This document shows, in pieces, positions 13,626 through 32,747 of a stretch of 64,000 nucleotides of DNA. Source of the stretch: Lentisphaerae bacterium GWF2_44_16. Lineage in GTDB: Bacteria > Verrucomicrobiota > Lentisphaeria > Victivallales > GWF2-45-14. The notes under the pieces are model-generated. The model was not told where the DNA came from. It searched no databases and saw only the letters and a program-made list of their open reading frames with translations. A program made the translations under genes and the position numbers. Every line of letters begins with the position of its first letter. Position 1 is the first letter of the stretch. The stretch spans positions 589-64,588 of the forward strand of contig MHBF01000168.1 in NCBI GenBank assembly GCA_001803225.1, in the 5' to 3' direction.

Positions 13626-14495
13626 TTATTCCTCTTCTTCCAAATCTTTCATTACTTTTTTAATATATTCGATATCTTCCTTTGCAAAGCATTCCCTGTC
13701 GCCGGGACGCGGGGCTTCAAGCGCGATCATGCCTGTATATCCTCTTGTTTTAAGAATGCGGAGAAACTCACGGTTGTTTATTATTCCGCCGGATAGAGAA
13801 TATCTTATGGAATTATTGTAAGTTTTTTCAGGTATTTTGAGAATGTTTTTGAGATGTACATAATAGATTTTTTCACCGCATACGTCAATCACATCCTTTA
13901 AGGAAGGTTGTTCGGGAAAGTGGATTATATTGCAATAGTCCAGATTTATCCCGACGCTTTTCATGTTTATCATATCGACAAGTTTTCTGGCACTGGTATG
14001 CAAGTCATGTATATAACACATGTGTGTTTCAAAGGCTATTTTGAAGCCCGCCTCATCAGCGAATTTTCCAATTGTTTTAAAGCCTTCCGCCGCCCATTTC
14101 CACTGTTCAGGGGCCGCTATGGCGGAACCCTGCTTGTCATATTCCATATAGGATGATGATTTATCAAGCAAATCTCCGGCGAATGCGTTACAAATTTTCA
14201 GCTCAAACTTTTTTGAAGCAGCATCAAAAAAATTCATAATTTCATCAAGACTCTTTTTTCTTTCCTCCATATCCGGCTGCATCAGTTCCGGGCCGAAGCT
14301 GAATAAAATATTTTCAAGTCTGCTGGCTTCAGCTTCCCCGGCTATTTCATCAAGGTAAGCCTCCTGGGTGTATCCCTGTTTTTTTCTGCGGAACTCGACT
14401 CCGTCATAACCCCATTCGACGGCCTTTCTGCAAATTCTTTTTATGGATTGTCCCTGTTCCATGTAGTTGACATGCATTATTACAGGATTACTCAT
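13626..14495 (-). CDS. Sugar phosphate isomerase/epimerase (xylose-isomerase-like TIM barrel) family protein
   Basis: ~290 aa with GYDGVEFR, FKIAFETH, GINLDYCN, YVHLKN and ALEAPRPGD, the pattern of AP-endonuclease-2/xylose-isomerase-like TIM barrels. It lies 6 nt upstream of the oxidoreductase gene. Confidence 0.8.
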   Translation of the reverse strand: MSNPVIMHVNYMEQGQSIKRICRKAVEWGYDGVEFRRKKQGYTQEAYLDEIAGEAEASRLENILFSFGPELMQPDMEERKKSLDEIMNFFDAASKKFELKICNAFAGDLLDKSSSYMEYDKQGSAIAAPEQWKWAAEGFKTIGKFADEAGFKIAFETHMCYIHDLHTSARKLVDMINMKSVGINLDYCNIIHFPEQPSLKDVIDVCGEKIYYVHLKNILKIPEKTYNNSIRYSLSGGIINNREFLRILKTRGYTGMIALEAPRPGDRECFAKEDIEYIKKVMKDLEEEE

Positions 14496-15711
14496 GTTTC
14501 TCCTTATTTTTCAAAGTTTCTTTTGCCACGCGCATTACATTAAGCCCGATTATTTTTCTGATATCGTCATCGGAATATCCCTTTTGAACAAGTCCGACTG
14601 TAAAAAGAGGCCAGTTTGTCCAAGCCAGGCTATTATTGTCATTATCTCTCTGATATTCCGGCGGTGTCAAACTGCCTTCCGGCCAGAGAGCGGCAAATCT
14701 CTGGCGTGATTTCAAATAGCGCATGGGAATTTCTGAATGCAGACTGTATGTCGCATCCGTTCCTATTGCCACATGTTCGGCCCCGAACTTTTTGACTGCA
14801 TAGTCAATATGTTCGATAAGAGCATCAATATTGCCGCTTCTTTTCAGAAAGCCCGGCATGGCACATATCCCGATGTATCCGCCGCTGTCGGCTATCGCCT
14901 TGATTACCTCATCTGTTTTGGCGCGGCAATGAGGCGTAACCGTGTTACAGGTGGAATGGCTTGCCACGACTGGTTTTTCAGATACTTTGGCAGCATCAAA
15001 ACTTGTCTTCTGCCCGGAGTGGGCCACGTCGGGAATTATGCCGACCCTGTTCATTTCCCTTATAACAGCCCTGCCGAGTTCGCTGAGGCCGCCGTCTGAT
15101 TTCTCTCCGCATCCGTCACCAATAAAATTGCGTCTGTTGTAAGTCAAATGCATCATACGGCAACCAAGTTGAAAGAATATGCGTATGAAATATATTGCGT
15201 CTTCCTGACTGTGCCATCCCGTGGGAAATGGTACGCCATTGGTGGTAAGGTAAAGTGTTTTCAGCCCTTCCCGATATGCTGTTTCAATGTCTTCGGGGAA
15301 AACGGATCTCCTGTAGATTTCTCGTTTGGAATCCAGCAGATAAGTGAAACGCGCAAACCTCTTGAGCAGTTCTTGAATGGAATGCCCTTCTCCTTCCGCA
15401 CCGGCATTTTGAAAAATACATTTGACCCCTGATATTTCCCAAGCCTCCTTATATTCGTTCATTAGCTCCTTATTATCAAGAAAACTTATCGAACGCATTT
15501 CTTCGACATTGTCAATCAGTTCAAAAGGTGAAGCATTTTCATCTATGAGCTTATAGATTTTTTCGCAGTCATAAGGCCCTGTAGGCGCAAAACCGTAGGC
15601 ATCCCATACAAGGGAATTTTTATGCAGTTCCAGACCATGTTCCAAATCTTTTTTTGACGGTTTCAGGACACTCAATGCCGTCTCACGGCAACTCTCAATT
15701 CTTTTGTTCAT
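14488..15711 (-). CDS. Peptidase M19 (membrane/renal dipeptidase) family protein, atypical N-terminal metal site
   Basis: HLTYNRRNFIGDGC, GLSELGRAVIREMNRVGIIPDVAHSG, VVASHS and AIGTD match M19 motifs. The N-terminal V-x-D-G-H-N-D-L-P motif reads VWDAYGFAP. Confidence 0.75.
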   Translation of the reverse strand: MNKRIESCRETALSVLKPSKKDLEHGLELHKNSLVWDAYGFAPTGPYDCEKIYKLIDENASPFELIDNVEEMRSISFLDNKELMNEYKEAWEISGVKCIFQNAGAEGEGHSIQELLKRFARFTYLLDSKREIYRRSVFPEDIETAYREGLKTLYLTTNGVPFPTGWHSQEDAIYFIRIFFQLGCRMMHLTYNRRNFIGDGCGEKSDGGLSELGRAVIREMNRVGIIPDVAHSGQKTSFDAAKVSEKPVVASHSTCNTVTPHCRAKTDEVIKAIADSGGYIGICAMPGFLKRSGNIDALIEHIDYAVKKFGAEHVAIGTDATYSLHSEIPMRYLKSRQRFAALWPEGSLTPPEYQRDNDNNSLAWTNWPLFTVGLVQKGYSDDDIRKIIGLNVMRVAKETLKNKEKHE

Positions 15712-16438
15712 TTCTGTATTCCTCTGCTTTTTTTATTAAAAGATCAAAAACACGTTTTCTGAATTTTTTACCTTTATGACGTTCTATATGAAATTGCAGT
15801 CCCAGCCTGAATTCCCGACCTGTTCCTTCAATGGCTTCCACAGTGCCGTCCTCAGCGAAAGCCGATATCAGAAGTCCCTTTCCCTGAAACTTCGGATTTA
15901 CGGCCTGGTGATGACTTGAATTTATTTCAAAACTATCACCTTCAATAAGTGATTTCAGTATATTCCCACCGCATATTCTTGCTTTATGATACTTTTCTCC
16001 GGTATGCTGATCAGCGGTTTTTACGTGCTGGATAAGCTTGCCTCCTGAGGCTATGCTTAAAAGCTGTTCGCCTGCGCATATTCCCAGAACAGGCTTTTTC
16101 GACGCGATTGCCTTTCTCATCAGGTAAAGGTCAGCGAAGGGCCTTTTGTTTTTGCAAGACATGTCTTCTGGAATTGCATCCTCCCCGTAAAACTCAGGGG
16201 GATAATCAGGACCGCCGATGAATAGAAAAGCGTCAGCTTTTTCCGCGTAAAGATCAAGAACCGCTTCATTTTCAGTTTTAGGTACTATCAATGGCAGGCC
16301 CTTTGACTTGATTATGCCTTCAATATACATGTTCCCAACAATGTAACGGTAGTGAATTTTTCCTGATTTTTTATCACTTTCGTAATGTGTATTTACGGCT
16401 ACCAGAGGGTTCGTACTATGCGGCAAAGAAAAATTCAT
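15695..16438 (-). CDS. Peptidase C26 / gamma-glutamyl hydrolase-type class I glutamine amidotransferase-like protein
   Basis: FIGGPDYPPEFYGE, nucleophile elbow VLGICAGEQLL, NSSHHQAV and the His/Glu pair in LGLQFHIE. Confidence 0.85.
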   Translation of the reverse strand: MNFSLPHSTNPLVAVNTHYESDKKSGKIHYRYIVGNMYIEGIIKSKGLPLIVPKTENEAVLDLYAEKADAFLFIGGPDYPPEFYGEDAIPEDMSCKNKRPFADLYLMRKAIASKKPVLGICAGEQLLSIASGGKLIQHVKTADQHTGEKYHKARICGGNILKSLIEGDSFEINSSHHQAVNPKFQGKGLLISAFAEDGTVEAIEGTGREFRLGLQFHIERHKGKKFRKRVFDLLIKKAEEYRNEQKN

Positions 16439-16473
16439 AAATGATATATCCTTTGTGATTTATTTATAGTAAT

Positions 16474-16686: not shown

Positions 16687-17793
16687 TCAGCGCCAGTTTG
16701 TCATGTCGTGCCTGAGTATTTCATGACGTGAAATGTTCTTGTTTGCCCCGCATGAGCATCTTATTTTCAGAGTAGGAGAGAGCCATATTATTTTATCTTT
16801 TATTTTCCCGGTTCCTTTATTGAGGGCGAGGAATGTTTCCGCCAACTTTTCGCCAATTTCTTTTCCGGGCCAGTCGACGGATGTAAAGGGCACCTCCGTG
16901 GCATTTGAATATATGCTTCCATAGATTGTTACAAACGCGAGGTCTTCCGGTATTTTTATATCGAAAGACGAAATAAGCTCATAAGCCATAATGGCTTCAT
17001 CTTCGTATGACGCGACGGCTGCGGTGGGGGAACCCGAAGCCTTGAAGACTTCTTTTACTTTGGTAATGGTGTACAAGTCGTCTTTAGATAATATCACCTG
17101 GTTTTTTTCAGGAATGCCCGCTTCCTTGCAGGCATCCTTGAAACCCTGGAAGCGAAGGGTTGCCGAGTAGGTGTTCTCTGGAAACCATCCTATGTATGCC
17201 AGTTTTTTATGCCCCAGAGAAATGAGATGCTTTGTCGCGATATAACCGCCCTCTTTCTCGTCAACGAGGAGCTGATATCCGGAAAAACCCTCCAGATAAC
17301 GTTGAACTATTATCACCGGAACGTCTTTTGCGCCATTTGCTATTTCGGTGAATTTTTTCAAGTCTTCCGCTTTTCCAGAGTGCATCAGCGCTATTCCTTG
17401 AGTGCCGGCCTCCAAGGTTTGAGAGACGGCTTTTTCGAGATATTCAAGATTATACTGCACCTGTATTATTGCGCCCAACGCTGAGTTTTCCATAAGCACA
17501 CGGGAATATGCCCTTCCCATTTGCTGATAGAAAAGATCCCTGTATCCTGATATAAAGAGATGAAAAGCGGGCATTGTCCGCTTGATGTCGCCAGAGATGA
17601 AGGTGCCCCTGCCGGCTGTTTTTTTCAACAGCCCCTTTGCCTCCAGATCATTCATAGCTCTTAGCGCGGTAATCCTGGAAACACCGTATTTTTTGCACAG
17701 TTCATTTCCGGTCGGGATTTTATCACCCGGCTTGTATGCCCCACTGCTTATTTTCCGGTATATATCGTTGTAGATTTCTCTGTGCTTTGCCAT
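16687..17793 (-). CDS. AraR-type regulator: GntR-family HTH fused to a LacI/PBP1-like sugar-binding domain
   Basis: N-terminus YNDIYRKISSGAYKPGDKIPTGNELCKKYGVSRITALRAMNDLEAKGLLKKTAGRGTFIS (GntR wHTH). The C-terminal ~270 aa have the periplasmic-binding fold (LAYIGW..., AAVASYEDEAIMA, FTSVDWP). Confidence 0.85.
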   Translation of the reverse strand: MAKHREIYNDIYRKISSGAYKPGDKIPTGNELCKKYGVSRITALRAMNDLEAKGLLKKTAGRGTFISGDIKRTMPAFHLFISGYRDLFYQQMGRAYSRVLMENSALGAIIQVQYNLEYLEKAVSQTLEAGTQGIALMHSGKAEDLKKFTEIANGAKDVPVIIVQRYLEGFSGYQLLVDEKEGGYIATKHLISLGHKKLAYIGWFPENTYSATLRFQGFKDACKEAGIPEKNQVILSKDDLYTITKVKEVFKASGSPTAAVASYEDEAIMAYELISSFDIKIPEDLAFVTIYGSIYSNATEVPFTSVDWPGKEIGEKLAETFLALNKGTGKIKDKIIWLSPTLKIRCSCGANKNISRHEILRHDMTNWR

Positions 17794-17994
17794 TCCGCAC
17801 CGCCTTTTTTGAATAATATATCATTATAATACCATTTCCCCACTTGAAATGCAAGTGCACTCTTTTTAAATCTTATGAATATCGGGCAATTTCTATCTGC
17901 TTATTTCTATCTGCCTTAAAATTAAATGGTATATTAATTTATAGCTTGTGCTGCAATTGAGGCTGTCGGATTTAATCTTCATTGGGTAAATTCC

Positions 17995-18040: not shown

Positions 18041-18041
18041 C

Positions 18042-18129
18042 GAATCTCCGGCCCGCCCGCAGGGCGTGGGAGTCCGTCCGTAATACCCCGTCGCTCTGCG
18101 GCGGGGATAGGATGGACGGGAGGAGATTC
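18042..18129 (+). ncRNA. Candidate structured RNA or palindromic element (unclassified)
   Basis: An 88-nt GC-rich island in an AT-rich intergenic region. Closing helix GAATCTCC (18042-18049) / GGAGATTC (18122-18129). Hairpin 18056-18070. A 9-bp helix 18073-18081 / 18112-18120 encloses a 9-bp hairpin 18086-18094 / 18098-18106. Four G-U pairs exist only in the plus-strand reading. Confidence 0.4.
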
Positions 18130-18169
18130 TTTATTTACAATAAAAAATGCTTCAAAAAAAATTAAACTA

Positions 18170-18198
18170 TTGACTTTTATTGATTAATAATATATTAT
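18170..18198 (+). promoter_or_regulatory. Sigma70-type promoter of the 18241->31380 plus-strand operon
   Basis: TTGACT (18170-18175), 17-nt spacer, TATTAT (18193-18198). AAGGTG SD before the ATG at 18241. Confidence 0.55.
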
Positions 18199-18240
18199 AT
18201 ATAAAAATAATATATCAATATTGTAAAAGGTGATGCTGAG

Positions 18241-19497
18241 ATGAAAAAAACAATTTTGGTGGGGGCCAGTTACAGGGGGCTTTTCGGGTTTGTAAAGCCC
18301 TTGATAAATAATTATTCCACTGAATATAAAGTTGCGGCAGTCTGTGATTTGAGTCTGGATAGAATAAAAGTCATGAATGAGCTTGCGGGCGTTGCTCTGC
18401 CCGGATATGATGATTTCGACACTATGGTAAAAGATATCAGGCCCGACATGGCGATCATTGCCTCTATTGACAGTTCGCATATCGACTATATAGAAAAATG
18501 TCTTCAGCTGGGCATTGAATGCGTATGCGAAAAGCCCTTGTGCATTGATGCTGAACAGTGTAGACGGGTAAGGAAAGCACAGAAATTGAACCCCTCGGTT
18601 AAAGCTGTTACCACCCACAATTACCGGTACAGTCCGTACATGCTTAGGATAAAGGAAATACTTGATTCAGGGAAAATAGGCAAAATCCGTTCCGTCAACT
18701 TCGACGAATATCTAGACTGGCGTCATGGGACAAGTTATTTCCGCAGATGGAACAGAACGAAGAAAAATTCCGGAGGACTGCTTGTCCATAAGGCATCTCA
18801 TCATTTTGACCTGATAAACTGGTTTGTCGCTTCGCTTCCGAAGAACTTGAGCGCGCATGGACGACTGATTGCTTATGGCGCTCAAAACTGTCTCTTTAAA
18901 GCTGATGACAAATACGGTCCCGCCTGCCATAAATGTTCAAAAACAAAAGAAGAGTGCCGTTACAAAACACAATTGGATGGTATGCGTGATAAGATGTATT
19001 TCAAAAGCAATGGCGGCAATGGCTACACTCCGGATCTTTGTGTTTTCTCTCCCGAAATAGATACCTATGACCATGTGAGCGTCGGTTATGATTATGCCAA
19101 TGGAGTTCACGTCGCATATTCCCTCTGCGCCCATGCGTCTTATGAGGGTATGAGAATAAGCATAGAAGGTAGCAAAGCTCGCCTTGATTATCAGGAAATA
19201 TTGTCTACATCTCCGATGGAAACCTCAGCTGTTTACGGTTCTGAGACAATTACTAAAAAGGAAATAATGATAATTCCCTTTGAAAAAAATATTGAACGTG
19301 TCCATGTTGAAAAAGTGGAAGGTGGACATGGCGGCGCCGACTATATGATGCACCGGGACCTTTTCGGCGGAGGAAAGAGCAATGCAGAGGCAAGCCTTGA
19401 AGACGGTATTCAGGCTGTTCTTGTAGGTTCCGCCGCGAATATTTCCATTGAAACGGGGTGCAGGGTGGATATACAATCGCTGGCGCCTGTAAATTGA
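18241..19497 (+). CDS. Gfo/Idh/MocA family oxidoreductase (long form, 418 aa)
   Basis: ILVGASYRGLFGFVKPL, IIASIDSSHIDYIEKCLQLGIECVCEKPL. The C-terminal alpha/beta domain carries a Cys-rich insert (CHKCSKTKEECRY). Confidence 0.8.
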   Translation: MKKTILVGASYRGLFGFVKPLINNYSTEYKVAAVCDLSLDRIKVMNELAGVALPGYDDFDTMVKDIRPDMAIIASIDSSHIDYIEKCLQLGIECVCEKPLCIDAEQCRRVRKAQKLNPSVKAVTTHNYRYSPYMLRIKEILDSGKIGKIRSVNFDEYLDWRHGTSYFRRWNRTKKNSGGLLVHKASHHFDLINWFVASLPKNLSAHGRLIAYGAQNCLFKADDKYGPACHKCSKTKEECRYKTQLDGMRDKMYFKSNGGNGYTPDLCVFSPEIDTYDHVSVGYDYANGVHVAYSLCAHASYEGMRISIEGSKARLDYQEILSTSPMETSAVYGSETITKKEIMIIPFEKNIERVHVEKVEGGHGGADYMMHRDLFGGGKSNAEASLEDGIQAVLVGSAANISIETGCRVDIQSLAPVN

Positions 19498-19509
19498 GGA
19501 AAGTTTTTT

Positions 19510-20661
19510 ATGAAAAATAGAATAAGAAAAATTGTCAATGATAATAAGCCCGGAATACTGGCCTTCCTTAAAGCTCTTGTGGACACGAACAGTTACTCCT
19601 ACAATAAAGAAGGGGTGAACAGGATAGGAGAGATTATAAAAGGCGCGATGCCCGGATGTTTTTCTTCTGAAATAATCAGGCATGAAAAATATGGAGACAA
19701 TTATATATACACCAACAAATTCAATAAGCGCAGACCGCTCCTGCTTGTCGGGCACATGGATACCCTCTGCCCCGAGGACAAGAAATTCAACCGGCTGGAA
19801 AAGTCCGGCGAAAAGTTGACAGGTCCCGGCGTTAATGACATGAAGGGCGGACTCGCCGTGCTGGTCTGGTCGCTGAAAATACTCGAAGAGTCAGGCATCC
19901 TGAAAGGAATTCCCGTAACTTGCATCTTCAATTCCGATGAAGAAATAGGCTCTGTTTTTTCAAACCGGATTTTCAGAGGCATGAAAGGAAAAGCGGAACT
20001 GGCATTGGTCTTTGAATGTGGCGGGCCGGAAGGAACGGTTGTAAGCACACGCAAAAGCAACGCGCGTTTCCGCCTGAACATTACCGGTGAGCCGAACCAC
20101 TTCGGAAATCTCAAGGGACGGAAAGTCAGTGCCGTTGAGGAGCTCGGAAATAAAATACTTGAGATAGAAGCACTGAACCGTCCTGATAAAAGTGTTGCTG
20201 CCAATGTAGGCAGGGTCGGCGGAGGCCTCGCGGCAAACGCAGTGGCTGAAAGCGCGTTTATGGAGTTTGAAGTGCGGCACTGGAATTCTGATATTGAAAA
20301 AGAAACTCTTAAAAAAATAAAAAAGATATTGTCCAAGTCCCATGTAAAAGGCTGTAAACTGGAACTTGATGAAATGGCATACAGGCCTCCGATGGAGCCT
20401 TCCGGAAAATCGATGAGATTATTTGATATGATAGTGGAAACGGGAAAAGGACTTGGCCATAAAATAATTGAGGAAAAACGCGGAGGCCTTTCCGATGGCA
20501 ACTGGCTCTCTCATGTCGGCATTCCGACAATTGACGGACTGGGGCCTCTAGGTGATGGGGATTTTACAACTAATGAATTTATTTTAACGAAGACCCTGTT
20601 TGAAAGAATAGAACTTGTTTCAAATCTGCTTTTGAGAATCCATAATGGATGGACTTTATGA
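19510..20661 (+). CDS. Peptidase M20 family (carboxypeptidase G2 / glutamate carboxypeptidase-like)
   Basis: LLVGHMDTLCP, GPGVNDMKGG, FNSDEEIGS and DGLGPLGDGDFT are the M20A metal-ligand and catalytic motifs. Confidence 0.85.
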   Translation: MKNRIRKIVNDNKPGILAFLKALVDTNSYSYNKEGVNRIGEIIKGAMPGCFSSEIIRHEKYGDNYIYTNKFNKRRPLLLVGHMDTLCPEDKKFNRLEKSGEKLTGPGVNDMKGGLAVLVWSLKILEESGILKGIPVTCIFNSDEEIGSVFSNRIFRGMKGKAELALVFECGGPEGTVVSTRKSNARFRLNITGEPNHFGNLKGRKVSAVEELGNKILEIEALNRPDKSVAANVGRVGGGLAANAVAESAFMEFEVRHWNSDIEKETLKKIKKILSKSHVKGCKLELDEMAYRPPMEPSGKSMRLFDMIVETGKGLGHKIIEEKRGGLSDGNWLSHVGIPTIDGLGPLGDGDFTTNEFILTKTLFERIELVSNLLLRIHNGWTL

Positions 20662-21560
20662 AAGAGATGGGAAAAGAAATTAAAATTGTAACTACCGATT
20701 CAGGACTGGGCGGCCTTTCCATAACAGCTTTACTGGCAGAGCGCCTGAAGAAGGAAAGGCAATTTGAAAGAGTGAATTTGACATTTTTCAATTGCAGACC
20801 GTCTGATGAGATTGGATATGATAATCTTCCTGATAACGAGACGCGGGCTTCGGTGTTCTCGAATGCGCTTTATTCCATTCAGGATAAACTGAAACCGGAT
20901 ATCATACTTATAGCATGCAATACCCTGTCCGTGATTTTTGATAAGACAGATTTTTCAAAGAAAACAACAGTTCCGGTTATCGGTATAGTGTCCAATGGTG
21001 TAAATGAAATATATGAATATATGAAAACTGACAACGATTTGCGGATGATAATGTTCGCAACGCCCACGACTGTGATTTCAAATGTTCACAGAAAGATGCT
21101 TGAAGAAAGAGGCATTTCTCCTGACAGATTGATTTATCAGGAATGCAGAGGCCTTGCCGGAGAAATAGAAAAGGGGGCAGAAGAGAAAGTCAGAAGTATG
21201 ATTGAAGATTTCATGCGAAGCGCCGCTTCCGAAACTGTCAGGAAACCGATTTCAGTATCCCTCCTATGCACACATTTCGACTATGTCCACGATATTTTTC
21301 GTGAGGAAGCCGGAAAAATATTGTCATTTAATGGGAAAATAATAAACCCAAATTCGGGAATGGTCGCAAATTTTCTGAACAATTTTCCCGAAAGACAAGT
21401 CAGTAAAACTGATATTTCCATAAAGGTGATGACTCAGACAAGGCATACCAGAGAAATGAAAAGAGCTCTTGTTCAAAAACTTGAAGACACATCATCGGCT
21501 GTAGCGTCCGCATTTGAAAATGATATTCTGGAAAAGAACTTTTTTGAATACAGTTTTTGA
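20649..21560 (+). CDS. Asp/Glu racemase family protein (glutamate racemase-like)
   Basis: TTDSGLGGLS (cf. MurI DSGVGG), first catalytic Cys IACNTLS, second Cys LCTHFD (cf. GCTHYP). There is a 13-nt overlap with the M20 gene. Confidence 0.75.
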   Translation: MDFMKEMGKEIKIVTTDSGLGGLSITALLAERLKKERQFERVNLTFFNCRPSDEIGYDNLPDNETRASVFSNALYSIQDKLKPDIILIACNTLSVIFDKTDFSKKTTVPVIGIVSNGVNEIYEYMKTDNDLRMIMFATPTTVISNVHRKMLEERGISPDRLIYQECRGLAGEIEKGAEEKVRSMIEDFMRSAASETVRKPISVSLLCTHFDYVHDIFREEAGKILSFNGKIINPNSGMVANFLNNFPERQVSKTDISIKVMTQTRHTREMKRALVQKLEDTSSAVASAFENDILEKNFFEYSF

Positions 21561-21630
21561 TAAATAAATGTCGCGCTTTAGTGTTTTTCTGAATATTATG
21601 TATTATAATATGGTTATGAGGGTATGTAAC

Positions 21631-22395
21631 ATGGCATTTAGTGGCAATAAATTTGTTTTTTCGCTTATTGAACTTCTGATAGTTATTTCTGTTATTGCTG
21701 TTTTGGCGGGGCTTCTTTTGCCGGCATTAAAACACTCCAAAGATATGTCTTATCGCATTAGTTGCGCAAGCAATATGAAACAACTCGGAAGCGGTTATTA
21801 CATGTATGATACCGATTTTGGACGCCTTCCGGCATTTTGGGATGAAATTTACGGGGACGGATACAGGGAACCGGGGCATTATCTCAAACGCACAGACTCG
21901 GGAAATACCCAGTGGCTTGGTTTTGGCGCCTTGGCCGGTTCCGGGATAATCACAAGCGGCAGGGGCTTTTACTGCCCAAGTAAAACTAACGTGAATCCCA
22001 ACGGTTCTTTCAGATATGAAGGTTCATATGCCAACGGCAATGGCAAATGGCGTAATGATTTGAATGCTGAAGTTCAAGTTACAGATAACTACTGGCAAAG
22101 GTGGAATAAAACGACAAGTTATTATGAAAATACGACGGCTGGATTGGTGCCGATGATCAGCAAATTGACAAATAACTCGCCGAACAGGTGGCTTGCCGCC
22201 GACATGTGGGGATATTACGCTGTAACAACTGATCAGTATTGGTATCCTCACCCTAACGGGTTCAATATTCTTTATATTGATGGACATGCCGGTTTCATAA
22301 AAACGAGTCTGACTACTATTATAAGTTTATATTCAGGAAACGCCGCTTATGTGTGTCCAAAACTGACAAACACTTTCGGTTTAACTGTGCCATGA
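21631..22395 (+). CDS. Prepilin-type N-terminal domain protein, H-X9-DG family
   Basis: [38 protein letters not shown]; C-terminal PH-PNGFNILYI-DGH. I chose the internal ATG at 21631 so the leader length is typical. The track ORF starts at 21568. Confidence 0.8.
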   Translation: MAFSGNKFVFSLIELLIVISVIAVLAGLLLPALKHSKDMSYRISCASNMKQLGSGYYMYDTDFGRLPAFWDEIYGDGYREPGHYLKRTDSGNTQWLGFGALAGSGIITSGRGFYCPSKTNVNPNGSFRYEGSYANGNGKWRNDLNAEVQVTDNYWQRWNKTTSYYENTTAGLVPMISKLTNNSPNRWLAADMWGYYAVTTDQYWYPHPNGFNILYIDGHAGFIKTSLTTIISLYSGNAAYVCPKLTNTFGLTVP

Positions 22396-22428
22396 TGATG
22401 AAGAATTACTGAAAAAAGGATTTGGCAG

Positions 22429-23121
22429 ATGGGAAAAAACAAAATAGAATCAAGGTGTTTCGGATGGAGAAAATGTCTTTTTACTTTAATTGAGCTCCTC
22501 ATGGTGGTATCAATTATAATGATTATGGCAAGTCTGCTTCTTCCGGCTTTAAATAAAGTACGTGATACTTCGAAGAGAATAAAATGCATCAATAATTTGA
22601 AGCAGGTTGCACTTTATGCCTCAATGTATTCTGAAGCATATAATGATTACCTTCTGCCTACTCAAGCTATCTATGGCGGAACTAATATGAAGTTCCCTCA
22701 GCTTTTGGTAAATTTGGGTATTACTCCGCCAAATTCCTATACAGGCCAAACCCCGATAATGTTTTATGTTTGTCCGTCGGAAAAACCGGGTTCTATTTCT
22801 CCTCATTATGATGATCCGCCTTCATCATGGCGCGGAACTCATTATGGACTTAGCGCCTATGTTTGCGGACGGACTATTACGGGCGGAGTCTATGATAGAA
22901 CATTAATGAAAATGAACAGAGTAAAAATACCGAGCGAAAGAATATATGGAGGCGACGGCAAGGGAAACAGTTATCCTGACATTAGCGCTACGCCTGGCAA
23001 TCTTGTCATGCGTCATTCTAACTCAGGATGTGTTTTTTATGTTGACGGGCACGCCAATGCCAGAAAGTCATTTGCCTTGAATGCCTCTGACTATGAATGG
23101 GGATATCAAGCAACGGATTAG
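22429..23121 (+). CDS. Prepilin-type N-terminal domain protein, H-X9-DG family
   Basis: [33 protein letters not shown]; [14 protein letters not shown]. Related to the next two genes ([11 protein letters not shown]..., SDYEWG). Confidence 0.85.
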
Positions 23122-23137
23122 CATAATAAGGATAAAT

Positions 23138-23836
23138 ATGAATAAATTGAAACTATTTATGAGTGAGATATCGGTTTTTACACTGCTTGAACTCCTGATA
23201 GTGATATCAATTATCGCTATTCTCGCGGCCATCTTACTACCGTCATTGCAAAGTGCCAGGAACCTCGCGAAGGAAATAAAATGCCTGAACAATGAAAAAC
23301 AAATTTATGGCTTTGCTTCGTTTTACACTCAGGACTATAATGACTATCTCCTTCCCAACAGAGGATGCATCCCTTCTTCCTTTGGCTCCAATATCGGCAT
23401 GCCCTTTCCTCAGTTACTTCAGGACGTGGGAATTGCTCCACAGGGGACTTTTCTTGATAACAATGCACCGGTACAGGGAAAAATGTATCACTGTCCGATG
23501 GAACCGTTGTCTGCCGTTTCCCCATATACAGGAGTACAATGGAGGGGGACTAACTATGGACTTAATCAATATATTTGCGGGCAGTTTTACTATATGGATA
23601 CAGGTTTTACCTATCCTTTTTTAAAAATTATAAAAATCAGTCAGACAAGCAAACGCTTGTATGGAGGGGACAATACAGGCAATTCTTATCCAAGGATCGA
23701 CTCCACGAGCGGATTGCCGATGCGACACTCAGGCAAATCATGTACTTTTTATGTGGACGGACATGCCGGAACTGTTAAGATAATTCCTGCATATTCTTCT
23801 TATGAGTGGGGTGTGAGCAGTTACTGGAGTAATTGA
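23138..23836 (+). CDS. Prepilin-type N-terminal domain protein, H-X9-DG family (tandem paralogue A)
   Basis: [73 protein letters not shown]; [14 protein letters not shown]. Start taken at the internal ATG 23138. Confidence 0.85.
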
Positions 23837-23858
23837 AGAAAAATATAAAGGTAAAATT

Positions 23859-24551
23859 ATGGAACATGCCGGTAAGTTAAATTTACTTAAAGATAAAATA
23901 GCATTCACATTGCTTGAGCTCCTGATAGTGATATCAATTATAGCGATTCTTGCCGCTATGTTACTTCCTGCATTAAAAAGTGCCAGGAACCTCGCGAAAG
24001 AAATAAAGTGTTTGAACAATGAAAAGCAAATTTACGGATTCGCATCGTTCTATACTCAGGATTACAATGATTATCTGCTTCCTGACCAGGCCTTTATCGG
24101 AACGGATAGATGCGTTTTTCCAAGACTGCTTCAGGAAATAGGAATTGCGCCGCAAGGTACATATGCAAATATTGGCGCTCCAGTTGCTGGTAAAATGTAT
24201 CACTGCCCGATGGAGCCTCTAACAGCGTTTTCTCCATATACAGGCGGTAATTGGCGTGGTACTCACTATGGACTTAACGGATATATCTGCGGGCATGATT
24301 TCAACACTTCTACAGGAGCTTACACTTATCCCCTTCTTAAAGTGACAAAAATAAGCCAAACAAGCAAAAGATTGTATGGCGGAGATAATAATGGAAACAG
24401 TTACCCGGAAATAAATTCAACAACCGGTCTTGTCATGCGCCATTCAGGAAAGTCTTCCGCTTTCTATATTGACGGACATGCGGGAACGGTAAAGGCTATT
24501 CCTGCATATTCTTCTTATGAATGGGGCGTAAGCAGTTATTGGAATGATTAA
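23859..24551 (+). CDS. Prepilin-type N-terminal domain protein, H-X9-DG family (tandem paralogue B)
   Basis: [64 protein letters not shown]; [14 protein letters not shown]. Long identical stretches are shared with 23138-23836. Confidence 0.85.
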
Positions 24552-24566
24552 AAAAAGGAATTTAAA

Positions 24567-25610
24567 GTGAAAGTAATAGATTTAAGGAGCGATACCGTTA
24601 CGAAGCCCACAGAGGAAATGCGCGAAGCCATGGCGCGTGCCGAAGTAGGCAATGAGGCATATGGGGAAGACCCGACAATATTGGAACTTGAAAAACTGGC
24701 TGTTGAATTGACTGGAATGGAAGCAGCCTTGTTTGTTGCGTCAGGCAAACAGGGAAATCTCTCAAGTGTTCTTGCGCATTGCAGAAGAGACGATGGTGTC
24801 TGTGTCGGCAAGGAATCGCACATATATTTTCACGAAGGAAGAGGTGTAGTCACCCTGAGCGGAGTACAGCTTCTTTTTACTGATGATTCAAAAGGGATAC
24901 CTGCGCCTGAAAATATTTTTCATGTTACGGATAAAGCAAATTGCAGGCATGCCCCGCCCAAGCTTCTATGCCTTGAGAATACTCATAATTTTGCGGGCGG
25001 TTTGGCTGTGCCTCCTGATATTTTCAAGAGAGCAGTTGACGCGGCCCGTGATGTCGGGCTTAAGGTACATCTTGACGGGGCAAGGATTTTTGATGCCGTG
25101 GCAAAATGGGGAATTGACGTTAAAAACTACACTGAAATTGTCGATTCCGTTCAGATATGTCTTACAAAAACTCTTGCGGCTCCGCTGGGTTCTATCGTTT
25201 GCGGAAGTAAAGAGTTTATAAAGGAGGCAAGGTCATGGAGAAACAGGCTTGGCGGTTCATTCAGGCAGGCCGGAATAGTCGGGGCAGCGGGATTAATATC
25301 TTTGAATAAGATGAGACTGAGGCTTTTAGAAGATCATAAAAGGGCGGAGTATTTCCGTAATAAACTAAAGGAAGCAGGACTTGATGTTCAGATGCATGAC
25401 TGGAGCACCAATATGGTGTTTATAAATTTTGATAAAGAGGTTAATTTTGATAAAATGGAAAAATTGTGCAAGTCAAATAATGTCCTTATTGGATTTACGT
25501 CTCTCAAGAGGATGCGTTTGGTTGTGCATAATGATATTGATAACAATGATTTGGATTTTGCCTCGGGAATAATACCACAGGCCATATATTCGGTTTTGAA
25601 AAATTCATAA
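24567..25610 (+). CDS. ltaE: Low-specificity L-threonine aldolase (beta-eliminating lyase / PLP fold type I)
   Basis: IDLRSDTVTKPTEEMREAMARAEVGNEAYGEDPT, ALFVASGKQGNL, and the PLP-Lys region ICLTKTLAAPLGS are classical LtaE motifs. Confidence 0.8.
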   Translation: MKVIDLRSDTVTKPTEEMREAMARAEVGNEAYGEDPTILELEKLAVELTGMEAALFVASGKQGNLSSVLAHCRRDDGVCVGKESHIYFHEGRGVVTLSGVQLLFTDDSKGIPAPENIFHVTDKANCRHAPPKLLCLENTHNFAGGLAVPPDIFKRAVDAARDVGLKVHLDGARIFDAVAKWGIDVKNYTEIVDSVQICLTKTLAAPLGSIVCGSKEFIKEARSWRNRLGGSFRQAGIVGAAGLISLNKMRLRLLEDHKRAEYFRNKLKEAGLDVQMHDWSTNMVFINFDKEVNFDKMEKLCKSNNVLIGFTSLKRMRLVVHNDIDNNDLDFASGIIPQAIYSVLKNS

Positions 25611-25644
25611 GTCGTTAAAAAATATTAATACAAGGAGATGCGCA

Positions 25645-28600
25645 ATGTTGGGATTGAAAAAGATGTTTTGTGCCGGGTTTATCATGATGGGGGCAAGTGC
25701 GGTTTTTTCAGATTGTTTCATCAAGGAGACTGAGGGAAAATATCTCCTCGGCAATGAATATATAAAAGTTACTGTGGAACCGGAAAAAGGTGGGAGTATA
25801 TCTGAATTTGAGTTTTGTCCTCTGGATATCAATTTTAGCCAGGCAGAAGGGAACTCTCTGGTGGATGAATTTTACGCGCAGTACAAAAAAGATGGTAAAA
25901 CAAATATTTACACTGAAGCCATAGACAAAAGAAAATTTATTCCTGAGATAATTAAGAATACAGCGGAAGAAATTCAGCTTAAACTCAGCGCCAGCGGAGG
26001 TTCAACGGAATTTGAGTGGCTCACTTTTTCAAAGACATATTCACTGAAAAAAAATTCTTCTGCTCTTAAAATTGATTATATTTGTCAGAACAATACAGAT
26101 CAGGCACATCAACTCGGCATAAGGACAAAGGCTTTTCTCAGAAAAAAAGGCTTTTTCCCTGAGAAAAACATTTTCATCACTCCGACGTGTAACGGGATAC
26201 TCGAAATAGAGCAACCCGGAGCGAACGCAACGCCGGGAGGGGATTATCACATGGAACCGGCTGCCGGATGGGAAGCTGTGGTGGGCGCTCAGGATGGAAG
26301 CGGGATACTGATTATCGTTGATGATAAGCTTATTTCATGTTTCTTCAACTGGTACCGTGATTCCGGCTTTTCATCTACGACGGAGTGGTTTCTGAGAGAA
26401 CAAGTCATAGCAGGCAATGGTTCTTTTACTGCCTCAGTAACACTTCTCCCGATCGAAGGAATGAAAAGAATTGACGGCATAGCAAAAGGAAACATCGCAT
26501 GTGGAATATCTCCTGACGGTAAAGTTTATCTTATCTCCCCTGAGAAAATATACCTCGATGTGAGAATAGGGACGGAAGAGACAAAAAAGGCCGAATTGCT
26601 GCCCTCAAAACTTATAGTCATGGATTTCACGCCTCTTAAAAACGGTGTCATTGAAGTCTCTATTTATAAAGGAAAAGAACTTCTAGGAAAAATCGAAAGA
26701 AACTCTGACGGAAAGGAAATAGTCAGAAAAGAGCCACAAAGGACGGGAGTAAAAGCAGTTGCACCAATATATTATAAATATTACAGGGGCGCGGAGGCTG
26801 AAGGTATAGTTCTGCGGAAACTCGCCTCCGTCGAAAAGAGCGGCAGTAGCGGAAAAAACGGTATTGAGAAAACAGTTCTCCGTCAGTTTGAAGATTCTCT
26901 TGCCGAAGCATATCTCTCTCCTGAAATGATGCCGATGGCGGAAAAAGGAGTATGTCTTTATGAAATGGATAAGAGTGGAAGAACGGAAGTTGAAGTAATA
27001 TCCTGTCTGAAAAAAGAAAAGGATGGTTCAGGTATTCTGTTTTGGGAGGTAAAAGGACTCGGAGGCAGGCCGCTGGATGCAAAAGAGAAAGATGGCGAAC
27101 TCTATGATAAAACAGGAAAATCCCTTGGTAGGATAGAACAGAAATACAGCATAGCGTTTGGAAGGAAATCAAAAAAAACGGATACTCTGAATGAAAAGGC
27201 CAACATGCTCGCAAACGCCTCCTTCGAAGATGAGTATTTCGATTTTTATAAGAGGAGTAAAGAACTTGTTTCCCAGGATGACAAGACTTTTCAATCAGGT
27301 AAAAAATCACTAAAAATAACAAAAAAACCTAAGGACAATTATACTTCCGTTCCTTTTTGGGGAATAGTTGAGGGGAACAGAAATTATGATATTTCAGCAT
27401 GGTGCAGGCAGGATACCACAGGCAAGGCGCTTGTTACAATGCCGGTATATTTCTATGACAAAGACTGGGTACAGATAAAAGACCTGAAAGGAAATGTCTG
27501 GAAGAAATATGCCATGCAGCAGGAAGGTTCATTTGAATGGCGGAAATTTGGGGGAATTATCAAATCACCTGAAAATGCGAGATTCATTCAGATATCCGTT
27601 ACAGGGCGACCTGAGGAAGGCGGAGCCCTCTGGATTGACGATATAAATATAAAATCGCAGTTGATTAAAGCCTCGAACGATATGGAAGAGGAATTGGCAA
27701 AGATAAAGAGCTCTACTTACAAAGCAATTGATGAAATATTTGCGGTAAGCGAAGATTTCATAACACCTCATGAAAAATGGCTCAAGCCTAAATCAGGGAA
27801 AAAAACTGAAATACTATGGCTTACGTCTTTGAAATACGCTGCCGATATCAGAAAAAGGGAACTTGTGGAAATGGCCCAGCGGATGAGCATGGACTATAAA
27901 TTTATTCCCTTACTTCCTAAAATGTTGACCCCTTCACGTGGTTTTCAGGGAATGAATGGCGGCGACACATACGGAACGGCGCTTGAACCCTATATAATCA
28001 TGTTGCTCCAGAAAGAGTTGTCCGAGAAAAAATATGATGTGATTGTTGTACAGGACTTGAGCTTTACAGGTTCGGCGCAGGCATGCGGTCAACGGAGTGA
28101 AATAGAAGCAAGCAAGAAGATTGAGACTGTTCAGAAAGAATTTACAGATATGCTCCTCAATGCCGCGAAAGAAGGAGCTGGACTTGTATTTTATAATTGT
28201 AAAGATATTCCTGCTGAATTTCAGAAGATACAGAAGGAAAATAAAGTGAAAACACCTGAAGGCATTTTGATCATGCCCCAGATCAGGAAAGTTGCCGATA
28301 GCCGCCTTAAATCAATATGCACTACGGCGAATTGCGGAAAAGGACGGATCGCGATCCTTGATGCTAATCAATCTCTTTATCCGTGTATTCCGGCCAATCG
28401 CGTAAATGAAATAACTGGAATCTGTTATGATTACAATATAAGAAGTTTTCCGTATATGGAGTATAAGCTTGCTCCTTTCATTAAAGCCATTCGCTGGGCG
28501 TCCTGGGAAAATGCAAAAGCCGTAATTGAGAAACTCTCTTTTGATAACGGCAAACTTAATTTCACAATATCTGCAGAAGAAGATGGAGATTATACCATTG

Positions 28601-31380
28601 TCTTGGATTATAAGGATATCTACTGGCATGATGAAGGAATAAGAAAAGAAAAAGTCTCTCTTCGAAAGGGCATCAATGAACTTAAAATTGAAACGCTAGC
28701 CAATCTGCCGGGTGGGAAAAATGTCGTAAACTGCAGATTGATGGACAATAGCGGAAAAATATGCGATTTCGGAAGCGCTACTTTTGAGCTGCATGAAGAA
28801 TGTAAAGTGCAAAGTGTGGAGTTTAATAACAAAGATAGGATATACAGGCTTGGCGAGGACGTCAAAGCCCGGATAGAGCTTGAAGGCGATTGGAAGGGCG
28901 CGGAAATTGTCTGTGAAGTCGAAGATAGCAATAACCGAATTGTAAATCTAATAACCATGCCAGCGCAGAAATCCGCGGATATATCATTTAAACTCAAAGG
29001 GCCATATACAATTCTCTATCATTTGTTTCTGAAAATAAGAAAAGGAGAAAAAATACTTTCACAAAATATGGTGGATTTCTCCCATCCTTTTGCATATCCA
29101 CCGACAGATGATCTTACTGCATATATATGGGGCGGTGGAACACCGAGACTGCTTGTCTTGAAAGATGTTGGCTTTGATGCGGATATTATTGGTTTCAATA
29201 ATATTGCCGAGCAGCATTTACGGGCTTTGTGCAATATGAATATACGTCCGGTCTCTGTAGGATGTGGATCTATATTGGGTATTGGAAGCAGATCTCAATA
29301 TAAAAGTGATATGCCCACAAAAGATCCGGTCAGACATCCATGCCTTTCCGATCCTGAGCATTGGAAAAAAGCGCGTCCATTCATTCATGAAAAAGTGAAA
29401 GGCGGCAATCATCTTTATTATGGAATAAGGGATTATTTTACAAATGATGAATTTTCCCTTGGGGCTTCGGTATGTATTTCGGAATACTGCCTGCACGATT
29501 TCAGGGAGTACCTGAAAAAACAATATTCATCAATCGCAGAATTGAACAAGGTCTGGAAAAGCTCTTTCAAGGATTGGCAGAAAATTGTTCCGCTTCCGAT
29601 GAAAGATGTAAGTGTTGAAAAAGACAATATTGCGGCCTGGCTTGAGCACAGGCTTTTCATGAACAATGTCTATGCCTATACATGGCTGGGAAAAACAAAA
29701 GAATATCTCAAAGAAGTGAATCCTGAAGCCAAACTCGGTCCTTCCGGTACTCTTAATCCGGGTTTTTCAATGGATTGGTATAAGACAATGCAGAAGACTG
29801 ATTTTCTTGCCAACTATGGAGGGATGCAAACAAACCTGATAGCTTCATTTGCTAATCCGGATACCGTTTTCGGACGTTGGACCGGAGGTTATGTGCCGAG
29901 TAATGAACCGTACGAGAGATATGTTCGTTCTATACTCTGGGAAGGGCTGTTCTTTCATAATAACGCTTACATGTATTTTCATGGCGGAGTCGGAACAACG
30001 ATGCGCGGGGACTTGCAAATGACCTGCAACATGAAGTACTGCGCTGAAGAACTGAAGGAAGTAAAAGCGGGCATCGCAAAACTTATCCTGAGTTCTAAAA
30101 AGGCCGATGTCAGGATTGCCGTTCTTTATTCGCAAGCTTCCATGTTTACAGCGATTGCCACGATAGGCAAGGAATATTGGGATGGGGCTATGGACAGTTG
30201 GAAAAACCTTCTTGATGATTTGAAATATAACTTTTGTTTCATCTCATCTGAGCAATTAGCAGAGAGGGGAATTGACATGGCTCAATATAAGGTGCTTGTG
30301 TTGCCCTGTACATTGTCACTGTCCCGGAAAGAAACAGAAAAGATAAAGGACTTTGTGAGGAATGGTGGTACGTTGATAACTGATTTTGCTACGGGACTGT
30401 TTGATGAGCACGGTACTAAAAGCGCTAACAGAGAATTGTATTCTGTTCTCGGCTTGGAAAGAACAGGATATGAACTTGATATCATTCCCTGTGAGGAAAA
30501 AATAAGTGAGGAAAAATCCTTGAACATCTCAGCCGGGAAATATATGACGCGTTTTGCGGAAAAAGATTTGAAATTGACAACAGGAAAAGCACTTGGCAAT
30601 ACAGGTAATCCTTCCACTCCCAGCCTTATCCTGAACAACACGGGAAAAGGTAAGAGCATATTCATGAATAACCTTATAAACGGATATTCTCTGATAACAC
30701 TTAAAGGCGCTGGGGGGGAACTTTCAGAGGAATTGAAAGGACCTGAACTTGTCCGCGAAATGACACGGAACATAGTCGGACAACTTTTGAATGCCAGTGG
30801 ATTAACTCCTCTTTTTTCAGTGAAAACACCTGACGGGAAAATATATCCGTCCATGGGAGTTGTTTTTGAAGACGGTAAAAATAAATATCTCGGCATCCTT
30901 AAATCTGCAAGCGGGGCCGGTGTTATAAACAGAGAAAAAGAAGCTGTCGATGTGACAATTTCATTTCCGGAAAAAGCTCATATCTATGACATCAGAAAAG
31001 GAGAGTACTTAGGGTACGCTTCGGAAATAAAAACTTCTATAATTCCGGCAATAGCAAAATTGTACGCACTCCTACCGCACAAAGTTGCTGGCATAAAACT
31101 TGACGGTATAAATAAGGAGTATAAAAGAGGCGCATCGATTGAAGCGGATGTAAAGGTTCAGGTTTCATCAGAAAATGCTGGGGACCATGTAATCCATTTT
31201 GAAGCCGTTTCTCCCGATGGAACGACGGTGAAATGCTATTCACAGAACATCAAACTGAAAAATGGCGAAGGCAAAGTCACATTGAACACTGCTTTGAATG
31301 ATATGCTCGGTAAATGGACTTTCAGAATAGGGGATATAGCATCAGGTATTGTCAGGAATGCTTCTTTTACTTTGAAGTGA
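25645..31380 (+). CDS. Giant (1911 aa) secreted multidomain glycosidase-like protein with a CBM4_9-like module and a GH42-like (beta-galactosidase-type) catalytic plus trimerisation-like region
   Basis: Signal peptide MLGLKKMFCAGFIMMGASAVFS. CBM-like NASFEDEYF...SGKKSLKITK...GALWIDDINI (aa ~515-660). GH42-like CLHDFREYLKKQYSSIAELNKVWKSSFKDWQKI, then RIAVLYSQASMF...YKVLVLPCTLSLSRKETEKIKDFVRNGGTLITDF (aa ~1150-1560). Confidence 0.65.
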   Translation: MLGLKKMFCAGFIMMGASAVFSDCFIKETEGKYLLGNEYIKVTVEPEKGGSISEFEFCPLDINFSQAEGNSLVDEFYAQYKKDGKTNIYTEAIDKRKFIPEIIKNTAEEIQLKLSASGGSTEFEWLTFSKTYSLKKNSSALKIDYICQNNTDQAHQLGIRTKAFLRKKGFFPEKNIFITPTCNGILEIEQPGANATPGGDYHMEPAAGWEAVVGAQDGSGILIIVDDKLISCFFNWYRDSGFSSTTEWFLREQVIAGNGSFTASVTLLPIEGMKRIDGIAKGNIACGISPDGKVYLISPEKIYLDVRIGTEETKKAELLPSKLIVMDFTPLKNGVIEVSIYKGKELLGKIERNSDGKEIVRKEPQRTGVKAVAPIYYKYYRGAEAEGIVLRKLASVEKSGSSGKNGIEKTVLRQFEDSLAEAYLSPEMMPMAEKGVCLYEMDKSGRTEVEVISCLKKEKDGSGILFWEVKGLGGRPLDAKEKDGELYDKTGKSLGRIEQKYSIAFGRKSKKTDTLNEKANMLANASFEDEYFDFYKRSKELVSQDDKTFQSGKKSLKITKKPKDNYTSVPFWGIVEGNRNYDISAWCRQDTTGKALVTMPVYFYDKDWVQIKDLKGNVWKKYAMQQEGSFEWRKFGGIIKSPENARFIQISVTGRPEEGGALWIDDINIKSQLIKASNDMEEELAKIKSSTYKAIDEIFAVSEDFITPHEKWLKPKSGKKTEILWLTSLKYAADIRKRELVEMAQRMSMDYKFIPLLPKMLTPSRGFQGMNGGDTYGTALEPYIIMLLQKELSEKKYDVIVVQDLSFTGSAQACGQRSEIEASKKIETVQKEFTDMLLNAAKEGAGLVFYNCKDIPAEFQKIQKENKVKTPEGILIMPQIRKVADSRLKSICTTANCGKGRIAILDANQSLYPCIPANRVNEITGICYDYNIRSFPYMEYKLAPFIKAIRWASWENAKAVIEKLSFDNGKLNFTISAEEDGDYTIVLDYKDIYWHDEGIRKEKVSLRKGINELKIETLANLPGGKNVVNCRLMDNSGKICDFGSATFELHEECKVQSVEFNNKDRIYRLGEDVKARIELEGDWKGAEIVCEVEDSNNRIVNLITMPAQKSADISFKLKGPYTILYHLFLKIRKGEKILSQNMVDFSHPFAYPPTDDLTAYIWGGGTPRLLVLKDVGFDADIIGFNNIAEQHLRALCNMNIRPVSVGCGSILGIGSRSQYKSDMPTKDPVRHPCLSDPEHWKKARPFIHEKVKGGNHLYYGIRDYFTNDEFSLGASVCISEYCLHDFREYLKKQYSSIAELNKVWKSSFKDWQKIVPLPMKDVSVEKDNIAAWLEHRLFMNNVYAYTWLGKTKEYLKEVNPEAKLGPSGTLNPGFSMDWYKTMQKTDFLANYGGMQTNLIASFANPDTVFGRWTGGYVPSNEPYERYVRSILWEGLFFHNNAYMYFHGGVGTTMRGDLQMTCNMKYCAEELKEVKAGIAKLILSSKKADVRIAVLYSQASMFTAIATIGKEYWDGAMDSWKNLLDDLKYNFCFISSEQLAERGIDMAQYKVLVLPCTLSLSRKETEKIKDFVRNGGTLITDFATGLFDEHGTKSANRELYSVLGLERTGYELDIIPCEEKISEEKSLNISAGKYMTRFAEKDLKLTTGKALGNTGNPSTPSLILNNTGKGKSIFMNNLINGYSLITLKGAGGELSEELKGPELVREMTRNIVGQLLNASGLTPLFSVKTPDGKIYPSMGVVFEDGKNKYLGILKSASGAGVINREKEAVDVTISFPEKAHIYDIRKGEYLGYASEIKTSIIPAIAKLYALLPHKVAGIKLDGINKEYKRGASIEADVKVQVSSENAGDHVIHFEAVSPDGTTVKCYSQNIKLKNGEGKVTLNTALNDMLGKWTFRIGDIASGIVRNASFTLK

Positions 31381-32729: not shown

Positions 32730-32747
32730 GTTGTTTTCTCCTCATTT

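Follow-up and report, generated by a model that had tools for sequence, protein, structure and literature searches.

The 64,000-nucleotide (nt) stretch of DNA analysed here, which we call the window (contig MHBF01000168.1, positions 589 to 64,588), comes from Lentisphaerae bacterium GWF2_44_16, a gut/sediment-type Victivallales bacterium, and carries a sugar-regulated cluster of two divergent arms. On the plus-strand arm, the gene of an M20 amidohydrolase resembling carboxypeptidase G2 (CPG2; 19510..20661) runs directly into the gene of a two-cysteine racemase related to the glutamate racemase MurI (20649..21560, with an alternative start at 20658). The explanation that we prefer, and to which we give about an even chance, is that this locus is one of the bacterium's many substrate-utilisation loci, with an accessory racemase–peptidase module embedded in it that likely salvages D- or gamma-linked glutamate; with the same evenly balanced confidence, we consider that the CPG2-like M20 enzyme, translationally coupled to a cytoplasmic MurI-like racemase, makes up a conserved two-gene module within it. 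In this bacterium such loci as a rule bring together a regulator with genes for pseudopilin-like proteins and glycan enzymes, and what is new about the present, sugar-regulated one is the coupling of an accessory racemase of MurI type with an atypical M20 enzyme.

The racemase and its M20 partner

The open reading frame (ORF) map and the family profile scans (Pfam, NCBIfam) over the window ORFs of 8969-46670 bear out the gene order, the gene families, the divergent AraR-type regulator and the catalytic cysteine motifs that an earlier note on this DNA had described. The racemase, a 303-amino-acid ORF, reaches 35.3 bits against PF01177, the Asp/Glu/hydantoin racemase superfamily (Asp_Glu_race; gathering score 31), and 52.7 bits (51.2 in the genome scan) against the glutamate racemase equivalog TIGR00067, which lies under the cut-off of 146.65. 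The motifs DSGLGGL, ACNT (Cys90) and CTH (LCTH, Cys207/His209) are present, with C90, C207 and D17-S18-G19 invariant among 16 family members, and when the pocket was compared via sequence and profile alignment the MurI catalytic residues proved to be kept: D17-S18, C90-N91-T92, T141 (TxxT segment), E-K-G and C207-T208-H209. With the AlphaFold model (predicted local distance difference test, pLDDT, 93.5), Foldseek returned glutamate racemases at all ranks from 1 to 48, aspartate racemase ranking only below these; the MurI matches have template modelling (TM) scores of 0.71-0.78 on the target, and identity to solved MurI structures is 14-21%. Set against MurI/RacE (TIGR00067; PDB 1b73, 1zuw, 2jfx), the racemase shares the fold and the two-thiol catalytic pair, together with DSGxGGL, ACNT, GTxxT-type and CTH motifs and the conserved Glu, but departs from them in the substrate loop, where D-x-x-R-x-P-Y-G of MurI aligns to FFNCRPSDEIGY and the family pattern is FFN(C/A)xP...GY with an insertion of 4-6 residues. 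It also has about 60 additional C-terminal residues relative to MurI and lies away from cell-wall genes, and some members of its family are predicted to be exported from their N-terminal signal or lipoprotein-type sequences. The glutamate racemase of the earlier note can thus be retained as a two-cysteine enzyme of MurI fold and must be given up as a canonical MurI.

Two canonical murI genes above the TIGR00067 cut-off lie on other contigs (C47:3434-4141, 220 bits; C167:4796-5524, 192 bits), and these, together with the low TIGR00067 score of the window enzyme, rule it out as the housekeeping murI. The racemase is an accessory third isozyme and not the cell-wall MurI; the gene that the earlier note found unusual for its place outside a cell-wall context is an extra copy. 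Two murI genes in one genome compare with one or none in most relatives and are either genuine paralogues or a product of binning (contamination 3.8%); contamination as their source is not distinguishable by GC content, which is 0.437 and 0.420 in the two murI contigs and has a median of 0.439 in the genome.

The M20 stop codon (TGA, 20659-20661) overlaps the racemase start, by 13 nt if translation begins at the ATG at 20649, as first noted, or through a 4-nt ATGA if it begins at the ATG at 20658; the database protein that is 100% identical to the racemase has 300 amino acids, three fewer than the 303-amino-acid ORF, which agrees with the latter start. The M20 protein possesses the catalytic and dimerisation domains (PF01546, 73.9 bits; PF07687, 46.3 bits), and its best solved relative is carboxypeptidase G2 (PDB 1cg2, 6xj5), with which it shares this domain composition, the His/Asp/Glu/Glu ligands, the catalytic Glu and the Arg of the R-G-G-x-S/T-D motif. 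None of 115 homologues departs from H82, D110, E144 (the catalytic Glu), E145, E169 or R324. It differs from carboxypeptidase G2 in that the match reaches only 98 bits, in having no signal peptide and in bearing Phe at the position equivalent to His385; the NCBIfam cut-offs were not reached either for glutamate carboxypeptidase (142 vs 349) or for PRK07338 (237 vs 357).

Recurrence of the pair in PVC bacteria

The M20 and racemase genes are likewise adjacent in three other loci of Lentisphaerota/Kiritimatiellota, on a Victivallales chromosome (L006), a Kiritimatiellae contig (L009) and a Victivallis contig (L011). Our maximum-likelihood tree places six racemases of Planctomycetes–Verrucomicrobia–Chlamydiae (PVC) bacteria, namely those of the window and of these three loci and the stand-alone copies of two further genomes (G183 and G249), in one clade (support 100/97), apart from the CapA/Ddl clade and from the groups linked to gamma-glutamyltranspeptidase (GGT) that are described below, with canonical MurI as a long outgroup branch. 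In the Victivallis locus a single strand bears genes for an M19-like protein (53% identical to that of the window), a C26 peptidase (42%), an EamA transporter, a diaminopentanoate-dehydrogenase-like protein, a ceramidase-like protein and an esterase, and then for a long Gfo protein, the M20 enzyme, the racemase and a GHL-type protein, the long Gfo homologue standing upstream of M20. A C26 gene is also found 1-2 kb from more distant members of the racemase family in three other Victivallales genomes. The association pointed out in the earlier note, an M20–racemase pair with M19-like and C26 genes nearby, is therefore encountered in further PVC genomes as well. The M20 subfamily is uncommon, with members in 2 of the 301 genomes sampled from the phylum, and a paralogue in genome G237 sits between M24 and M14 peptidase genes, without a racemase. 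The metagenome scan yielded one close relative of the window racemase, on a 1.3-kb contig.

Neighbourhoods of the racemase family

At E <= 0.001 the racemase has 1715 homologues, the closest beyond the identical protein showing 47-49% identity to it, which are named at their source only as 'aspartate/glutamate racemase family protein' or 'glutamate racemase' and which come from Victivallales, Kiritimatiellae, Ignavibacteria, Calditrichota, KSB1, Aminicenantes, Desulfobacterales and others. Neighbour genes were clustered in 80 genome loci, and the clustering was repeated on 80 metagenome loci; context counts refer to 88 genome loci and to the 45 metagenome loci whose flanks reach 4 kb or more. 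A first recurring context consists of GGT, often with an AstE/AspA-like protein (15 of the 88 genome loci, while 11 of the 45 metagenome loci are GGT-linked). The GGT-linked racemases bear N-terminal signal or lipoprotein-type sequences, as seen in ten loci, and this implies that they would be exported cofactor-independent racemases. A second is the cassette CapA(PGA_cap) – racemase – Ddl-like ATP-grasp (30/88 genome loci; 8/45 metagenome loci are CapA/Ddl-linked), often in the company of C26, a protein of the N-formylglutamate-amidohydrolase (FGase) family, alanine racemase or a class IV aminotransferase, which looks like a set for the synthesis and turnover of some D-amino-acid or gamma-glutamyl compound. 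This cassette is seen at L093:8834-12549 and at more than six other loci, and its taxa include Desulfobacterales, Syntrophales, Victivallales and Kiritimatiellia. The third context, found in PVC bacteria only, is the M20 gene directly upstream of the racemase.

Characterised GGT, C26, FGase, AstE and CPG2-type M20 enzymes all free glutamate from an amide. Because these unrelated glutamate-releasing families converge on the neighbourhoods of the racemase family, we take its substrate to be, probably, glutamate, and this convergence is our strongest argument. Regarding the glutamate-releasing set that the earlier note had proposed, the part that stands is that the family lies beside GGT, C26, FGase, AstE-like, M20 and D-amino-acid enzymes; the part left in doubt concerns the M20 and M19-like enzymes, which lack the last His and the HxD motif, respectively. 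The literature that we searched held no account of this racemase family or of the M20–racemase module; the DgcN-DgcA D-glutamate pathway mentioned in PMC10845958 is, as far as can be told, not homologous.

The genomes in which the clade stands alone provide another argument. Canonical murI is absent from three of them, G183 (one contig of 4.3 Mb), G249 and G009, whose sole MurI-like gene comes from the clade of the window racemase; in G183 and G249 murD is present and no D-amino-acid aminotransferase scores above the cut-off. With murD present and nothing else of MurI type in G183 and G249, their gene content would fit a real glutamate racemase activity. Over 151 genomes of the order, 80 have canonical murI and about 25 a divergent copy, with both in only 4 (canonical murI occurs in about 76 of the 126 genomes that have no divergent copy), and this pattern would fit such an activity as well. 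At L089:10813-13137, an amino-acid-binding (Peripla_BP_5/6) – PAS – GGDEF protein is encoded directly upstream of the stand-alone racemase of G183.

The other enzymes of the two arms

The minus-strand operon starts with a C26 gamma-glutamyl-hydrolase-type peptidase (15695..16438; Peptidase_C26, 156 bits vs a threshold of 20.5) whose triad is present (GICAG Cys121, His217-Ile-Glu219). Its nearest solved structures are 7d4r and PuuD 6vtv, and it belongs to the same family, with the same catalytic triad, as the PuuD/SpuA-type gamma-glutamyl-amine hydrolases, but it scores 62 against the PuuD equivalog cut-off of 266 and neither a PuuA-type ligase nor polyamine genes occur nearby. The following gene encodes an M19-like amidohydrolase (14488..15711, minus strand; Peptidase_M19, 214.6 bits) whose Pfam match spans profile positions 49-319 only. 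Five full-length M19-like paralogues occur in the genome (on contigs C23, C97, C61 and C151), two of them directly beside pseudopilin-like genes. Still on the minus strand come a xylose-isomerase-like TIM barrel protein (13626..14495; AP_endonuc_2, 104 bits), a short Gfo/Idh/MocA oxidoreductase (12618..13619; GFO_IDH_MocA, 107 bits), which falls under the cut-off of every named NCBIfam dehydrogenase, and, as last gene of this arm, a ceramidase-like amidase (11299..12621; Ceramidase_alk N-terminal, 62.7 bits) with weak similarity to the neutral ceramidase 2zws and about 20 paralogue matches in the genome.

The plus-strand arm opens with a long Gfo/Idh/MocA oxidoreductase of 418 amino acids (18241..19497; Pfam), the nearest solved structures of which are the Gfo oxidoreductases 8qc2/8qc3 and the glucuronide-3-dehydrogenase 8tdi (54-57 bits). 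This resemblance to glycoside 3-dehydrogenase-type structures, itself a weak similarity, together with the TIM-barrel protein suggests a putative oxidative cleavage of glycosides.

The regulator and a candidate operator

Between the two arms lies the gene of a regulator (16687..17793, minus strand) with a GntR-type helix-turn-helix (PF00392, 60 bits) and a LacI-type sugar-binding domain (Peripla_BP_3, PF13377, 80 bits; Peripla_BP_1, PF00532, 50 bits). Like AraR of B. subtilis it is a chimera of these two parts and is divergent from catabolic operons; its candidate operator AATGATATATCATT differs from the AraR box. Allowing at most one mismatch, the 14-nt palindrome AATRATATATYATT has five sites in the window, against 0.17 expected by chance, and all of them fall within three promoter regions. 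Two copies lie upstream of C26 (16440-16453 and 16562-16575), with a minus-strand promoter-like site between them (16502-16474); a perfect copy is found just 5' of the regulator gene (17812..17825); and two copies (18186-18199 and 18206-18219) lie over the -10 element of a plus-strand promoter-like site, TTGACT-17-TATTAT, at 18170-18198. Genome-wide there are 19 sites, of which the window holds five including both perfect copies, and five control palindromes of similar composition never exceeded two sites per contig.

Because the palindrome is common to the three promoter regions, both arms can be viewed as one candidate regulon. The search for an operator of the AraR-type regulator, a check proposed with the original prediction, has thus provided a candidate that would join the two arms and would imply autoregulation; judging from the sequence, the regulator of AraR architecture probably controls both arms via this palindrome. 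A GC-rich hairpin with a T-tail (17995-18020) and GC-rich sequence (17995-18129) occur upstream of the plus-strand promoter-like site, and an Rfam scan of 16300-32100 gave no match.

Downstream genes and the neighbouring operon

Downstream of the racemase, the plus strand encodes four prepilin-type H-X9-DG / DUF1559 pseudopilin-like proteins (21568-22395, 22429-23121, 23081-23836 and 23859-24551; N_methyl / TIGR02532), each with an N-terminal cleavage/methylation motif and a C-terminal H-X9-DG, then a low-specificity threonine-aldolase-type pyridoxal-phosphate (PLP) enzyme (24567..25610; Beta_elim_lyase, 293 bits), and finally an exported protein of 1911 amino acids (25645..31380) with an N-terminal hydrophobic signal-like segment, CBM4_9 and partial GH42/GH42M regions. 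The aldolase belongs to the GntG family (NF041359, 344 vs a cut-off of 230), stays just under that of PRK10534 (283 vs 312), has the PLP-lysine motif TKTLAAP and is single copy in the genome. Across the 96 loci examined, neither the aldolase, the pseudopilins nor the GH42-like gene is conserved with the racemase, an aldolase standing beside it in one distant locus only, from Acidobacteriota; genes of the H-X9-DG pseudopilins have at least 44 copies in the genome. These genes are best read as lineage-specific passengers outside the conserved module. To place pseudopilins, aldolase and giant protein in a regulon designed for glutamate and for the disposal of Thr or Ser, as the earlier note had done, is an over-reading, because they are not conserved with the module and H-X9-DG genes are very common.

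Farther along the window, a minus-strand operon at 32001-46670 adjoins the gene of a LacI-type regulator (45663-46670) and encodes two DegT/DnrJ/EryC1 sugar aminotransferases, two Gfo/Idh/MocA proteins, a ceramidase-like protein, a DUF4838/GH2_N protein, pseudopilin-like proteins, a CBM9 glycosidase-like protein and a LamG protein, a content that suggests the catabolism of an amino-sugar glycan.

Discussion

What might such a locus act on? To judge by the type of regulator, the glycosidase-like genes and the LacI-controlled operon nearby, the substrate may be a glycoconjugate rich in amino sugars, and the peptidases speak for D- or gamma-linked glutamate. In the sequence of events that we propose, the exported glycosidase-like protein and the oxidoreductase/TIM-barrel pair would strip sugar from the glycoconjugate, C26 would cut gamma-glutamyl amide bonds, the M20 and M19-like enzymes would free glutamate from alpha or N-acyl linkage, and the racemase, interconverting D- and L-glutamate, would bring the D-glutamate of the substrate into central metabolism. 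Peptidoglycan fragments fit both the amino-sugar and the glutamate evidence and are one candidate substrate, next to the poly-gamma-glutamate and glycopeptides of the earlier note; against them, the scanned window ORFs (8969-46670) contain no peptidoglycan-specific gene, the only Amidase_2 match being insignificant. murQ is located on another contig (C93), and no GGT was found in the genome. The scheme resembles the recycling of peptidoglycan stem peptides, in which the D-Glu of L-Ala-gamma-D-Glu-X is released and inverted to give usable L-amino acids. In the systems MpaA/YcjG/PepD of E. coli and YkfABC of B. subtilis, an enolase-superfamily enzyme epimerises the dipeptide and the amidases are of M14 or NlpC/P60 type, whereas here a MurI-like racemase is combined with enzymes of the M20, C26 and M19-like families, and no muropeptide-specific gene was found among the scanned window ORFs.

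Several observations weigh against glutamate salvage by a coupled module. The racemase has FFNCRPS...GY in place of the D-x-x-R-x-P-Y-G loop, and its substrate could differ accordingly. The last metal ligand of the M20 enzyme, the zinc ligand His385 of CPG2, is Phe352; among the 115 homologues this position is F in 54, H in 45, C in 8 and R in 8, Phe (in D-F-T) characterising the PVC/Planctomycetota subclade and D-H-S the more distant homologues. The M19-like enzyme does not have the HxD ligands of a binuclear site: at this segment it reads VWDAYGFAP (DAYGF in place of DGHND), with the later DVAHSG, ASHS and GTD kept, and the loss is shared by the Victivallis orthologue. As predicted from these altered sites, either enzyme could carry out a different chemistry. 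Furthermore, the nearest relatives of the racemase, in G183 and G249, stand alone without M20, and the M20 subfamily is found also without a racemase; the M19-like, ceramidase-like and Gfo proteins belong to expanded families present in other loci and provide weak evidence; and the candidate operator is AT-rich. Finally, the complementary distribution of canonical murI and the divergent copies rests on raw genome counts in which kinship is ignored, and in Chlamydia D-glutamate can be supplied by DapF (PMC5885031).

Another explanation is that the racemase and M20 act on something besides free glutamate, for instance an N-acyl amino acid, some other acidic amino acid, or a D-Glu-containing dipeptide that is first epimerised and then hydrolysed in an L-specific step, and that 'glutamate-centred' is an effect of family names. 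The substrate loop unlike that of MurI, the low TIGR00067 score, the altered metal sites of the M20 and M19-like enzymes and the fact that M20 and C26 miss all NCBIfam equivalog cut-offs speak in its favour. We nevertheless regard it as unlikely, since enzymes of five unrelated glutamate-releasing families are found time and again next to racemases of this family, certain genomes with murD have no MurI-like gene other than a stand-alone clade member, all MurI catalytic and alpha-group-binding residues are kept in the racemase, and the Arg that binds the glutamate carboxylate in CPG2-type enzymes is invariant in M20.

One may also imagine that the racemase is anabolic and provides D-glutamate for the wall, or for another D-glutamate product, under the conditions that induce the locus, its adjacency to hydrolases being meaningless. 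Clade members do seem to replace MurI in G183, G249 and G009, and other clades keep company with a Ddl-like ligase, alanine racemase and class IV aminotransferase, a biosynthetic-looking set. This explanation seems to us rather improbable, considering that the genome already has two canonical murI genes, that no ligase is encoded among the genes of either arm (11299-31380), and that the racemase start overlaps the M20 stop in a pair that is conserved in four PVC loci. That unrelated genes came together by chance in one long operon of a locus-rich genome, and share no regulon or pathway, we hold to be very improbable even though conservation of the module does not extend to the pseudopilins, threonine aldolase and GH42-like gene and the M19-like, ceramidase-like and Gfo paralogues are scattered over other loci, since the palindrome is common to all three promoter regions and rare elsewhere, the plus-strand intergenic gaps on the ORF map are of 7-34 nt, and the same six families are co-linear in the Victivallis locus.

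The accessory racemase–peptidase module that we favour is of moderate interest within the window, where it comes with a candidate operator, and is outweighed by the result at family level, most of which lies outside the window. It is tempting, if still doubtful, to regard the racemase family as a dedicated and so far uncharacterised glutamate-salvage family, with exported forms working alongside GGT and cytoplasmic forms alongside M20, C26, FGase or AstE-type amidases, which would convert D-glutamate from peptidoglycan, poly-gamma-glutamate or related necromass into L-glutamate and which in some PVC lineages would have taken over the wall role of MurI. Bacterial necromass is rich in D-glutamate and, to our knowledge, few routes for its reuse have been described. 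A widespread MurI-like family repeatedly tied to amidases that release glutamate would establish a salvage route not known before, notably given its exported members and those that seem to replace MurI, and would correct the blanket annotation 'Asp/Glu racemase family protein' of more than 1700 proteins. If true, anaerobic bacteria of gut and sediment would possess a widespread means of recycling D-amino acids that has yet to be described, with the first exported cofactor-independent glutamate racemases, and PVC bacteria would appear as organisms that insert peptide-processing modules into sugar-regulated utilisation loci.

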